Shown: one piece after another, positions 1 through 28,350 of the stretch
Layout: every line of letters starts with the position of its first letter
Position numbering within the stretch: the first letter of the stretch is position 1
Origin: a virus
Strand: one strand, 5' to 3'
IMG/VR virus record: IMGVR_UViG_3300021426_000170
Span: 1-35,518 of that record
DNA length: 35,518 nt
Translations under genes and position numbers: made by a program
The notes under the pieces: generated by a model
Databases searched by the model: none
The model's input: only the letters and a program-made list of their open reading frames with translations
Told to the model about the DNA's origin: nothing

Positions 1-534
1 CGGCAAGGAAAATTCTTTGATGAAATACTAGATCAGCCTAGTAACATGGATTTCTTTTTAGATTTTATAGATACTTCTACCGCCATTTCAGAATTTAGTA
101 TAGAAAATATTGGTAGACGCACTCTTACAATATCAAATGATGCAATAAATTGTATTTTTTAGCCTGATAACCCTGATATAGTTATTATTGAAGCAAACAG
201 CGAAGGCGCAGATGATCTTCGAGAATAGTGTTAGCATAGACGACAAGAATATTCTCAAGTAACATCAGACATTTATTCAAAGTTAGTTACTGGCGGAGTT
301 TTAAGGTCTGCTTATGAAGAAATAAGAACAGAATTTTATCAATATACTGATTATAATGAACAAGTCACATTAACCACTTTGCCAATTTATTATCTTGAGC
401 CTAATGTGCGGATAACAATTAAAAATTAGTAGAGCGGAATTGATGGAGATTACATGATAAAAACAATTTCATTACCATTAGATGTTAATGGAATGATGAA
501 TTTATCTTGTACAAAAGCACTTGAAAGAATTTAA
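1..534 (+). CDS. 5'-truncated late gene product (hypothetical, probably structural). Reads ...NCIF(TAG)PDNPDIVIIEANSEGADDLRE(TAG)C(TAG)HRRQEYSQVTSD...TIKN(TAG)(TAG)SGIDGDYMIKTISLPLDVNGMMNLSCTKALERI, ends TAA 532-534.
   Basis: Frame-1 translation is continuous from position 1 apart from five in-frame TAGs, including a tandem TAG-TAG at 427-432. The true stop is TAA. A hairpin terminator follows. Confidence 0.5.
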
Positions 535-545
535 CAAAAAAAAAT

Positions 546-584
546 AATGGCGATGATATTTTTATATCATCGCCATTTTTTTAT
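546..584. terminator. Bidirectional intrinsic terminator between the converging + gene (ends 534) and the - endolysin gene (ends 581).
   Basis: Inverted repeat aatggcgatgatat / atatcatcgccatt at 546-577 with a tttt loop. It is flanked by an A-run 537-545 and a T-run 577-584. Confidence 0.6.
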
Positions 585-24900: not shown

Positions 24901-27900
24901 TAAAGCTTGTTTCTTCTCATCAACTGCTGCTTGTAATCCTTTTAAAATTTCATCGGTATCACCAAGCATATTAGAGAAAATTTTTTCATAATCACTATCT
25001 AAAAGCCCTTCACCAAAAGCATTAGCGTCTTTTAAATATTGTATAATTGTAGAACCCGATTTAGCAATTCTTTTCTAAAAAATATTATTTAAATAAGCTT
25101 CTTCGCCTTTACTAACACCGTCACTAATTACTTTATTATATTGCTAAATTAATGCTGAATATTTTGTAAGCTAATTTGCTAATTCTTCATTTTCTTCTGC
25201 TAATCCTTCTGAAAAAGTAATTTGAAAAGCTCTTGTTGAAAATCCTGCAAAATCATTAAATTTTCCTTGATAACTTGCATGATCATTTTTATACTACTAA
25301 AGATTTGCATTAGCTTCTCTCAACTATGCATCTGTATTATAAACAAGATTTTGTTTCTATGATTTTTCTTTATCATGTCTTGCAGTAACATTTTCTAAAA
25401 CATTCTCAGTTCCGCCTAAAGCTGCTTTATCAGCCTACCTTTTAGCCTACTTTAAAACTTCAATAGTTTCTTTTAATGCATCTTGTCCACGAACAATAGC
25501 ATGGCCTTGCTCATCATAACCAACTATAACCGCTTGATTATATTCAGCAAAAGTATCAGTAATTTCATGATATCTATCTTGTTCATCTTGAGTTAATTGA
25601 TCTAAATTTACTCCATATGCGCCTGCTTTTTCAGACAATTTCTAATATTCTTTTGCAACCTACTACAAATTAGCAATTTGAACATTTTTAGATTTATTAT
25701 TCTAATTAGATTGATTGATGGCTTCATTAAATTCTTCAACTTTCTATTTAGTTGTTTTAAAATGATCCTCAATTTTATCCCATATTCCAGTAGCGTCTAA
25801 TAATCCTTTAGCAACTGACATAATTCCGTTACCTATCATAGTAACGACCATGCCAGATCCTGGAAGAATAGAATTTGCAATAATACCTGCAATACTTGGC
25901 AAGCTTCCTTGTAAACCACTCCAAGCTGCATTTACTTTTTCTGCAGAATTAGCGGTTTCATCTGTGGCCTTGCTAATAGCACCTAAAATTGAAGTTGTTG
26001 CAGTTAATCCAGCCGTAACATTTTGAACTACTGTTCTTAAATTAATAGCATTTTGGCCTCTTTTTATTCCATTCTCTAAAAGTTTCTAAGATTCTTTATT
26101 TTGAGCTTTTAATGCATCAACTTCACCGCTTAAATGACGATCATATAATGCTTTTGCTTCATTTGCTTTACCCAATAAAGTATTTTGATATTCTAACTAT
26201 TTAGTCATCATTTCAGATAAAAATTTTATATCCTCTGTGGTGATTGCCTAGTTATTTATCATGCTATTATATATATTAGATGCTTTATTCCTCTACTCTT
26301 GCGCTAATAAAGAACTATGAGTTAAAGACTATATTCGATTTAAAGCCTATTCATTTTCTACATAAGGAAGATATCCCTATTGAACTGTTTCAACATATTG
26401 TCTTGTTTCTTCAACAACATCATGTAATAATTGTTTCTGATTATTAATTTCAAGAGTCTGCTATTCAATTAAATTTAAAATCTCACTATATGTAGTAAAC
26501 TCATGGCCTGAAACTTCATCCATTACAGATTGATAATTTTCTATTAATGATAATTGTTGAGTTCGCATTCCAATTTGCTATTGTAATGCAGTTAATTCAT
26601 TATAGCTTTCTTGTGTTAATCCTTTTCTAACCGCATAAATTTGTTGATAAATTTCTGCCTATTTTTTTGCAGCTTCTACCGCAGCCTATTGATAATTACT
26701 ATCATATTGACCTTGTGAAATACGTTGAGATAAAATTGAATCTGCAACTTGATTTTTTAAATTATCAATATTTTTATTATTAATAAAAATATCAAACTTA
26801 TCTTTGGCTGACATAATGGCATCACTAATTTGCTTATTAAAAATATTAGCAAGTGTGGAACCAAAAGTCATTAAAACGGGAATCCCTCCCCCAAGACCAT
26901 CAATAAAATTATTAAATCCTTTTAAAACATCTCCAAAAACATCTACGAACCCTTTTACTGTTTTTTCATCAAATAAAATATCATAAGTACGTTCAGCTTC
27001 CGTACCTAATTCAATCATATGTGCTTCAAGACTCTCTAAATATCTATCATTTTTTTCATTTAAAGTACCTTGAGCATTTAAAGATGTATTTACAGATTGT
27101 AAATATTTATCCCAGTTATCAAAAAGAGCAATAAGATTATTATACTGACGTTGACCTGCCATAGTTTGAGCAAGGTTTATCTGTTGCTCTCTTGTTAAAC
27201 TTTCCCAACGTCCACCAATCTCTTCAATAACTTCACCAGTGTCTCTTAAATGACCATTAGCATCTAATACATTAAATCCTAATGCCGCCATTTTACCTGA
27301 ATAATTACCTAAACTTACCTAAGCCTCATCTGCGCCAGTCTTAATATCATTCATTCTGGCGTAAATGGTTTTAAAAGCTACACCGACTGATTCAGGCGCT
27401 TGTCGAGTCGTAGCAATAACAGTAGCAATCTGACCATTTAACTGATCAATATCAACACCCATAGCATTAGCGGTTGATGCTACTTTACTAATAGCAGTAG
27501 CCAACTATCCCATATTAGATGCGGTTGTATCTGCAACTGCCGCCAATTTATCAACATATTCTTCAGACTACTCTGCCGAAACATTGAAACCATTCCAAAC
27601 AGAAGTCAAATAGTCAATCATATCAGATCCAATACCAGTAATATTTTCAGCTTTTAAAGTAACTGAAGTTCTAGCTTGAACCTAATCATCGCTCAAACCT
27701 TGCTGATAGAATGCTAAAGCGGCTTTGGTATAATCAAGAGTCGATCTACCTAAATCCTTTGCTGCGGAATTCGCAGTATTCGCAAATCTTTGCATCTAAT
27801 CAGCACTATCACCAGTAACAATTCGGATATCGGTCAACGATCTATCTAAATCTTTTGCATAATAATAAGCATTTTGAATTGATTGAGTTATATTATTAAC

Positions 27901-28350
27901 AATACTAGATGTAATACTCCATTTAATAGTATTCGCCATTGAAGTAGCCATACTGTCTAATAATTTATTACTTTGTCTTAATTGAACATTTGTATTTAAA
28001 ATTTGTGTAGCAACGTTATTAAACGCCGCCTGTCCAGCCGCGCCAACTTGAGAAAAAGCTTGTTGGACTTGACTAATAGAGCTACCAGAATTTTTTAAAG
28101 TCTTATTAAATTGTTCAATATTAAGAGTATTTAATTTCGTATTGAAGGCTTTCTTTAATGCATTTTCTACATTCGTCGCCTATGTTTTTACTTGTCTTAA
28201 AGTTTCTGTTGCGGAGGCGGCGTCTGTATTATTAATCTTCATTACATCACTGATTTTTAATTTCTGTATCTATTGCAATGAAGATTTTAATTGGTTCAAC
28301 CCTTCTTTTTGAATGTCAAAACCAACTTGATATTTAATCTGATTCGCCAT
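18994..28350 (-). CDS. Tail tape measure protein, a single reading frame of about 3118 codons.
   Basis: ATG 28348-28350 with SD AAGGAG (plus strand ctcctt, 28361-28366). All 11 track fragments are frame 0, from 27319..27504 down to 18994..19593. Every checked junction is TAG, for example 28267, 26686, 22543, 20173 and 19627. At least ~35 in-frame TAGs are inferred from fragment spacing. The stop is TAA 18994-18996. TMP-type motifs are present (MATAISKVASTANAMGVDIDQLNGQIATVIATTRQAPESVGVAFKTIYARM; MAALGFNVLDANGHL...). Confidence 0.8.

Follow-up and report, generated by a model that had tools for sequence, protein, structure and literature searches.

The stretch of viral DNA analysed here, 35,518 bp with 32.5% G+C from the IMG/VR record IMGVR_UViG_3300021426_000170 (positions 1–35,518; hereafter the window), comes from a tailed phage of roughly 134 kb that was recovered in ruminant gut metagenomes and belongs to a large clade. 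It is practically certain that the amber codon TAG is recoded as a sense codon in this phage, and comparison with its relatives indicates that TAG very probably means Glu throughout the clade. We propose an overall explanation, which we hold with still high confidence: UAG would change from a stop to a Glu codon in the clade's virion and lysis genes and in some DNA-metabolism genes, and a block of genes free of TAG would stay readable by the host.

TAG is read as sense in the window

Under the standard code, the longest open reading frame (ORF) of the window has 831 codons. When only TAA and TGA are taken as stops, ORFs of 3120, 1646, 1103, 1025 and 693 codons appear; setting TGA or TAA as sense in the same scan of the window gave no comparable gain in ORF length. 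Reading TAG as sense restores 16 genes in 1–28909, of which 14 lie on the minus strand and two on the plus strand, namely the partial gene at 1–534 and the RuvC-like gene, which the initial annotation had counted among the minus-strand genes. In-frame TAG makes up 143 of their 9,255 late codons; among the leftward genes, only those at 11063–11878, 13360–13773 and 28574–28909 have none. All 16 genes end in one of the other two stops (TAA 13 times, TGA three times), as the annotation had said of the genuine ends, and no in-frame TAA or TGA interrupts them, nor is any frameshift needed to join their parts. Profile-domain matches run across the TAG positions for PhageMin_Tail, for Amidase_2 with Glucosaminidase, for CBM_5_12 with Peptidase_S74 and for DUF6273. 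The annotation had named full-length domain matches as a check; these were obtained for the tape measure protein (TMP), the amidase and S74, but the RuvC-like protein stayed below the curated Pfam cutoff (20.1 versus 22.2 bits), and a PDB search with it returned no match. The window therefore shows three features of stop-codon-recoded phages: full-length ORFs and domains, two retained stops and a block in the standard code.

The other way to account for broken frames is that the genes are pseudogenes or that the TAG codons are assembly or sequencing artefacts. This can be dismissed almost outright, because nothing except TAG interrupts the genes, the frames hold and full-length domains cross the TAG positions. 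Moreover, 66 of the 67 TMP TAG codons that align to an independent assembly of 97.5–98% identity are TAG there as well, the pattern recurs in >100 contigs from many samples, and many relatives gain ORF length likewise when TAG is read as sense. Reassignment rather than gene decay, as originally proposed, thus stands.

TAG faces Glu in related phages

For residue typing, TAG was translated as X in the window and in the loci that were fetched (L numbers), and the residues facing X were tabulated in well-aligned columns. With each position counted once, TAG of the window faces Glu at 41%, Lys at 13% and Gln at 9%. Under the same filter, the window's Glu codons face Glu at 58%, and its Gln codons face Gln at 62% and Glu at 5%. 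The log-likelihood for the window puts Glu 54 nats ahead of Gln and 50 ahead of Lys. The same signal is present in 129 of 452 loci, where 3,543 informative TAG positions give Glu 51%, Gln 10%, Lys 8% and Asp 7%; the clade with this signal thus comprises at least 129 related loci.

The signal extends to essential residues. The TAG at 1946–1948 in the endolysin aligns with the catalytic E in the motif AQAALETGWG of FlgJ (PDB 2zyc, 3vwo) and with the substituted Ala of the mutant structure 3k3t. In the fibre gene at 6607–9654, codon 565 (TAG at 7990–7992, codon verified) faces E in 78 homologs and D in two. Elsewhere, TAG stands in a Walker-A motif, GxPKSGKT, where relatives carry E. The comparison also holds in both directions between relatives: all five TAG of the window's RuvC-like gene face Glu codons in the 75%-identical gene of L129, and the four TAG of L129 face Glu codons of the window, so that TAG and Glu correspond at nine of nine positions in a check made at the DNA level. 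One of these RuvC-like TAG codons is presumably the catalytic Glu, an assignment that draws on the family alignment and the RuvC motif, the PDB having given no match. In the TerL of the nearest genome, eight of eight TAG face Glu or Asp; in the conserved N-terminal part of the TMP, TAG of the window faces Glu in relatives; and the partial gene at 1–534 shows Glu at three of four informative TAG positions against a 68%-identical homolog. Two genomes of 143.7 and 145.8 kb (L594, L597–L600), reached through an AAA protein inside a transfer RNA (tRNA) array that lies upstream of homologs of the window's left-end tail gene in other contigs, share five syntenic genes with window positions 9674–12726 at 59–80% identity; TAG in these genes faces Glu of the window nine times and Asp once in each genome.

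Three further comparisons did not bear on the choice of residue. The codon comparison of the TMP at 33–45% identity was too noisy to name the residue, the codon differences from the 97.5–98% identical genome included only four TAG changes (GAA, AAA, TTA and CAG) and were uninformative, and the Glu and Gln content of the window, with or without TAG, did not discriminate between residues.

The initial annotation had held that TAG most likely means Gln, as in genetic code 15, where a suppressor derived from tRNA-Gln would act as it does in crAss-like, Lak and phAss-1 phages. This is the sole TAG meaning described for phages that differ from the host code, 9–11% of TAG positions do face Gln, and one TAG–CAG difference separates the window from its 98% relative. 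The alignments nonetheless leave code 15 very improbable: TAG aligns mainly with Glu (41–51%) and not with Gln (9–10%), the reverse of what true Gln codons do, Gln at the catalytic position of GH73 would inactivate the domain, and the RuvC-like and TerL positions point to acidic residues. The Gln in public databases does not count for it either. Homologs of the RuvC-like protein in public protein collections (P0001–P0120) are full-length and carry Q at the TAG columns, and the underlying DNA has TAG; for the homolog of L128, all five database Q were verified as TAG. These Q residues are a product of gene calling in code 15, a software translation, and therefore not evidence for Gln.

In a set of phages unrelated to the window, TAG follows another pattern. 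The fibre gene at 6607–9654 is common to many other phages, and in 35–70 kb IMG/VR contigs from gut and rumen that share it (L058, L062, L071, L073–L077, L088, L089, L093, L098, L104, L106, L113 and L117) in-frame TAG aligns mainly with Tyr, at 57% of 256 informative positions and at 25 of 37 in L106. No suppressor tRNA was found in the stretches of these loci that were fetched. The alignments suggest that Tyr may be a third meaning of TAG in gut and rumen phages.

Where TAG occurs and where it is avoided

The rightward block at 29072–35518, described before as 6.4 kb without in-frame TAG, indeed has none in 2,001 codons, and the comparison of TAG density between late and early genes that had been suggested gives 143 of 9,255 against this zero (Fisher p = 1.4e-12). 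At late-gene usage about 36 TAG codons would be expected there, and Glu is common in the encoded proteins; out of frame, TAG occurs 23 + 23 times (46 in total). In the nearest genome the TAG-free block runs on, TAG-poor, for about 13.7 kb beyond the right end of the window, and this extension encodes RNA ligase, kinase, phosphoesterase, RNase H, gyrase and NAD ligase.

Within the window, the statement that TAG is confined to late structural and lysis genes holds. It does not hold genome-wide, because in relatives some genes for replication and nucleotide metabolism carry in-frame TAG as well (ThyX-like, RecJ-like, NrdD/G and a Sak4/RecA-like ATPase), and the capsid and scaffold genes of relatives have none.

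A suppressor tRNA of Glu type in the family

The tRNA and Rfam RNA searches of the window found none, in agreement with the earlier remark that the suppressor tRNA is not in the window. In relatives, a tRNA(CUA) is present once each in L459, L594 and L597–L600, and in family genomes that share the TAG–Glu signal it lies inside an array of 21–25 tRNA genes. In L458/L459 and in L588 a tRNA array stands upstream of a DUF5048 tail gene, the homolog of the gene at the left end of the window. The tRNA(CUA) of L459 directly follows tRNA-Glu(UUC) and tRNA-Glu(CUC). The sequence of the suppressor tRNA(CUA) is CGCCCGTTAGTCAAGCGGTTTAAGACGGCTGACTCTAAATCAGCAGGGCTGGGTTCGATTCCCAGACGGGTGACCA. A gene for a sigma-70-family factor (L459 479–1393) lies directly upstream of the array with the Glu-type suppressor, a possible sign of joint regulation of the array and late transcription.

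The suppressors appear to be functional tRNAs with the features of tRNA-Glu. Across the three of them, 20 cloverleaf pairs can be compared, of which ten show compensatory double changes and none is broken, and the D-arm plus anticodon arm, 37 nt in all, is the same in L594 and L459. Raw pairwise tRNA identity did not identify the suppressor type (Asp came top at 0.72), and the length of the variable loop is non-specific, as loops of 4 nt are also seen in tRNAs for Gly, Gln and Phe; the D-loop motif and covariance models were used because these two measures do not discriminate. Of the 242 distinct tRNAs in all loci, seven carry the D-loop motif CAAG[CT]GGT[ACT]TAA[AG], namely the suppressor and six tRNA-Glu. 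The 17-nt D-arm of the suppressor is present in many Bacillota genomes; at 15 bacterial loci checked, ARAGORN placed a tRNA over the match in eight, seven of them tRNA-Glu. Covariance models were built from 16 phage tRNA-Glu and 15 phage tRNA-Gln sequences. The suppressors scored 73.4 bits with the Glu model against 56.5 with the Gln model (L459), 74.3 against 53.9 (L594) and 74.5 against 48.0 (L597), and a held-out tRNA-Glu control scored 81.4 against 58.9. In its D-arm, its variable loop of 4 nt and its overall profile, the family tRNA(CUA) matches tRNA-Glu. A suppressor of Glu type is likely to exist in the window's lineage as well. Gln-type suppressors are confined to distant relatives, for example L021 from the human gut (48.0 bits Glu, 63.9 Gln); they are a point for code 15, but the suppressors of the TAG-recoded family genomes themselves are of Glu type. 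Pyrrolysine decoding was rejected, since the tRNA fits the tRNA-Glu profile and TAG faces Lys at only 8–13% (pyl genes were not searched for); the label 'Pyl' given by ARAGORN is its default name for a CUA anticodon.

Other unusual tRNAs were seen in related arrays. Two tRNA-like elements beside tRNA-Leu(CAA) in L439 (952–1553, minus strand), L440 (960–1562, minus strand) and L438 (81–164), with Rfam tRNA scores of 40–51 bits, were considered as a CUA suppressor and rejected. Their anticodon arms are aberrant: one has a 42-nt insertion and an 8-nt loop, the other a 3-nt loop. A structured-looking spacer of about 350 nt lies between them, and the cluster is present in one subclade only. In L467, a 92-nt class-II tRNA(CUA) at 12992–13083, right after tRNA-Ser(UGA), may be an amber suppressor of Ser type. 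The CUA suppressors of L208 (2751–2825), L209/L210 (9273–9347) and L473 (4780–4854) combine a Glu-like D-arm with a variable loop of 4 nt, and for them the Glu model scores only slightly higher than the Gln model (59.0 versus 56.5 bits for L208–L210, 59.8 versus 51.6 for L473). A relative carries an opal suppressor, tRNA(UCA), at L025 3643–3718. Three arrays contain a phage tmRNA (L464 14746–15058, L465 9807–10119 and L467 11262–11571) with the tag peptide ANYDYRMAA or AEYDYQMVA.

Points against Glu, and other ways of decoding

Several observations weigh against Glu delivered by a phage suppressor. Gln comes second among the residues facing TAG, and does so about 2.5 times as often as at true Glu codons; TAG of relatives faces Gln positions of the window almost as often as Glu positions (6.7% versus 8.3%); and there is the one TAG–CAG difference from the 98% relative. 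The TAG alignment of L458, L459 and L588, which have few positions and spurious antisense ORFs, gave no residue. In the nearest genome no tRNA was found in about 91 kb (1–17.1, 19.6–60.0 and 102.6–133.9 kb scanned). Finally, the anticodon is normally among the identity elements read by glutamyl-tRNA synthetase (GluRS), which makes the charging of a CUA tRNA with Glu a prediction.

The excess of Gln would be explained by the single C-to-T step between CAG and TAG, and it is also compatible with partial insertion of Gln. One possibility is thus dual decoding, in which the suppressor first receives Glu and some of it is then converted to the Gln form by amidation, or is mischarged by glutaminyl-tRNA synthetase (GlnRS), the mixture being tolerated at most sites. 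In the Miller and Abelson collections of E. coli amber suppressors (about 1990), tRNA-Glu(CUA), with a tRNA-Glu body and a CUA anticodon, is said to be largely mischarged, inserting mostly Gln, because GlnRS reads CUA and GluRS depends on its own anticodon. Unlike these engineered suppressors, however, the phage suppressor would evidently deliver Glu at catalytic sites, and therefore a different synthetase context may be expected: a host without GlnRS, a non-discriminating GluRS or compensating features of the tRNA. TAG stands at catalytic or invariant acidic sites (the Glu of GH73, fibre codon 565 and the Walker-A motif), and with the one-step mutation accounting for the Gln excess, dual decoding appears improbable.

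It has also to be considered that the host itself decodes UAG as Glu, so that the phage needs no suppressor of its own, as the lack of any tRNA in about 126 kb (the window and the overlapping parts of the nearest genome) might suggest. A matching phage-encoded suppressor tRNA is present in only about 35–50% of described recoded phages. Host decoding gives no reason for the early block to avoid TAG, suppressor genes are present in family members that show the same signal, and a full-text literature search for UAG-to-Glu in phages or bacteria found none (most subscription-journal papers were outside its coverage). We thus give decoding by the host very little credence, and favour Glu inserted by a phage suppressor of Glu type.

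Proposed mechanism

We propose that the block without TAG holds what are presumably the early genes, readable in the host's standard code. The window's own genome would carry the Glu-type suppressor, by synteny about 6–17 kb to the left of the window. After expression, the suppressor would be charged with Glu by the host GluRS. Many Bacillota have no GlnRS, and their non-discriminating GluRS accepts C36 and G36 of the anticodon; such an enzyme may tolerate A at this position as well. The amidotransferase GatCAB would leave the Glu on the suppressor unconverted to Gln, because the tRNA body is of Glu type. The suppressor would then compete with release factor 1 (RF1), and the genes with TAG would be translatable only from then on. 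With 85 TAG in the TMP, decoding of about 99% per codon would be needed, which argues for a dedicated and abundant suppressor, possibly together with inhibition of RF1.

Gene content of the window and its relatives

The genes of the window are listed in Table 1. The holin-like gene starts with TTG, preceded by the ribosome-binding site GGAGGTG.

Table 1. Genes and selected codons of the window
Feature	Position	Strand	In-frame TAG	Evidence and remarks
Tail protein gene, 3' end, DUF5048-like	1–534	+	5	Stop TAA; phrog_32343, phrog_1887 tail
Endolysin: Amidase_2, GH73 glucosaminidase and C-terminal domain	581–2611	-	7	Pfam
TAG codon at GH73 catalytic-Glu position, motif AAQCCL-TAG-NGYG	1946–1948	-		Alignment to FlgJ; codon verified
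Holin-like small membrane protein	2663–3076	-	6	Stop TGA; phrog_37604
Tail fibre, C-terminal DUF6273 repeats	3350–6610	-	2	Pfam
Tail fibre / receptor-binding protein	6607–9654	-	4	phrog_14959, E = 4e-101
Six small virion-module genes (104, 196, 151, 271, 78, 177 aa)	9674–12690	-	1, 1, 1, 0, 2, 1	
RuvC-like resolvase	12826–13317	+	5	TAG at 12880, 13009, 13012, 13108, 13249
137-aa gene	13360–13773	-	0 after its Met	phrog_1401
Large tail protein, 1641 codons: CBM_5_12, C-terminal Peptidase_S74 chaperone domain	13763–18688	-	23	
TMP, 3118 codons	18994–28350	-	85	PhageMin_Tail at residues 195–399, E = 9.8e-29
111-aa gene, first of leftward unit	28574–28909	-	0	
TAG-free rightward block, nine genes	29072–35518	+	0	Pfam

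The rightward block encodes two metallophosphoesterases, a Thg1-like protein, an 825-aa protein with the shoulder domain of the major vault protein (MVP), a gp5.9-like protein, a pyrimidine-dimer glycosylase and small ORFs. The MVP-shoulder protein (31698–34175, plus strand; Pfam E = 8e-23) has homologs of 54–99% identity in 46 IMG/VR contigs and of 37% in megaphage records of 460–735 kb (LR756500/1/3); its gene uses CAG 26 times and CAA twice, and the remainder of the window favours CAA. The Thg1-like 3'-5' nucleotidyltransferase lies at 30819–31646 (plus strand). In the nearest genome, just past the end of the window (L201 1211–4145), genes for an RNA ligase, a P-loop kinase and a phosphoesterase follow. 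Together, the Thg1-like enzyme and these three look like a kit for tRNA repair or tRNA 5'-editing. In several relatives the phage tRNAs, suppressors included, have a mismatched 1:72 pair, and a Thg1-like enzyme could repair such pairs.

Megablast of the whole window against GenBank phages found no similarity at the DNA level, and tblastn with the tail protein gave short matches only. IMG/VR holds many relatives of 120–195 kb, marked by the MVP-shoulder protein. The nearest, IMGVR_UViG_3300021399_000007 (133,873 bp), is 97.5–98% identical over window positions 9303–35212; both fibre genes are replaced in it (window 3117–9303 versus L047), a swap of the fibre module. In L129 the orientation of the RuvC-like gene with respect to the tail genes is reversed. 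Gyrase B of the nearest genome (L201 5504–8486) is apparently split, into 5504–7054 and 8040–8486, by an ORF at 7221–7946 with a GIY-YIG-like N-terminus, which may be a homing endonuclease or an intein-type insertion.

Comparison with known systems and significance

Peritrich ciliates have a nuclear code, NCBI table 30, in which TAA and TAG mean Glu. The clade of the window would resemble it in that UAG is decoded as Glu, there too by a suppressor tRNA of Glu type. The ciliate code differs in that it is eukaryotic and genome-wide and includes TAA, with no temporal switch and no conflict of code between host and parasite.

Code-15 gut phages are known from the crAss-like, Lak, Agate, Garnet and Topaz clades (bioRxiv 10.1101/2021.08.26.457843; PMC9523058), and according to Borges et al. 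only TAG-to-Gln and TGA-to-Trp occur in phages whose code is unlike that of the host (bioRxiv 10.1101/2021.08.26.457843). The window clade, as its sequences indicate, would break this rule. It is like the code-15 gut phages in that in-frame TAG is concentrated in virion and lysis genes with a TAG-free block left host-readable, TAA and TGA still terminate, phage tRNA arrays include tRNA(CUA) genes and the same role, a timer of late expression, is proposed. It is unlike them in the residue, which would be Glu, and in the body of the family suppressor, which is that of tRNA-Glu and not of tRNA-Gln.

phAss-1, of the proposed Phassvirus, represents 136-kb human-gut phages with TAG in 41 ORFs, including those for TerL, TMP and portal, and with many tRNA genes, two or three of them tRNA-Sup-CTA; its TAG was reported as Gln from a TerL alignment and tRNAscan typing (PMC10607447). 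The window phage is of similar genome size. Its tail protein has only a local match of 40% over about 100 aa in phAss-1, and the MVP-shoulder protein, the marker of the window's family, has no homolog in phAss-1.

On balance, we favour the view that a natural UAG-to-Glu code, served by a suppressor derived from tRNA-Glu, exists in a large clade of ruminant-gut phages and has been overlooked because gene callers hard-wire Gln. Such a code would be an additional natural codon reassignment for bacterial viruses and would contradict the published generalisation. If this is true, then together with the TAG–Tyr signal, amber reassignment in phages would not be limited to Gln, and several aminoacyl-tRNA synthetases could be hijacked. 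It also raises the biochemical question of how a CUA tRNA would be charged with Glu by a GluRS that reads the anticodon and would escape amidation, and the tRNAs may find use as suppressors that are orthogonal or restricted to certain hosts. The residue would be wrong in thousands of database proteins, in some of them at a catalytic site, and systematic annotation as Q would degrade homology searches, structure prediction and functional inference in this clade and probably in others. For the phages themselves, the clade would allow the idea that the code switch times lysis to be tested more cleanly, as a change from E to Q is consequential at active sites.

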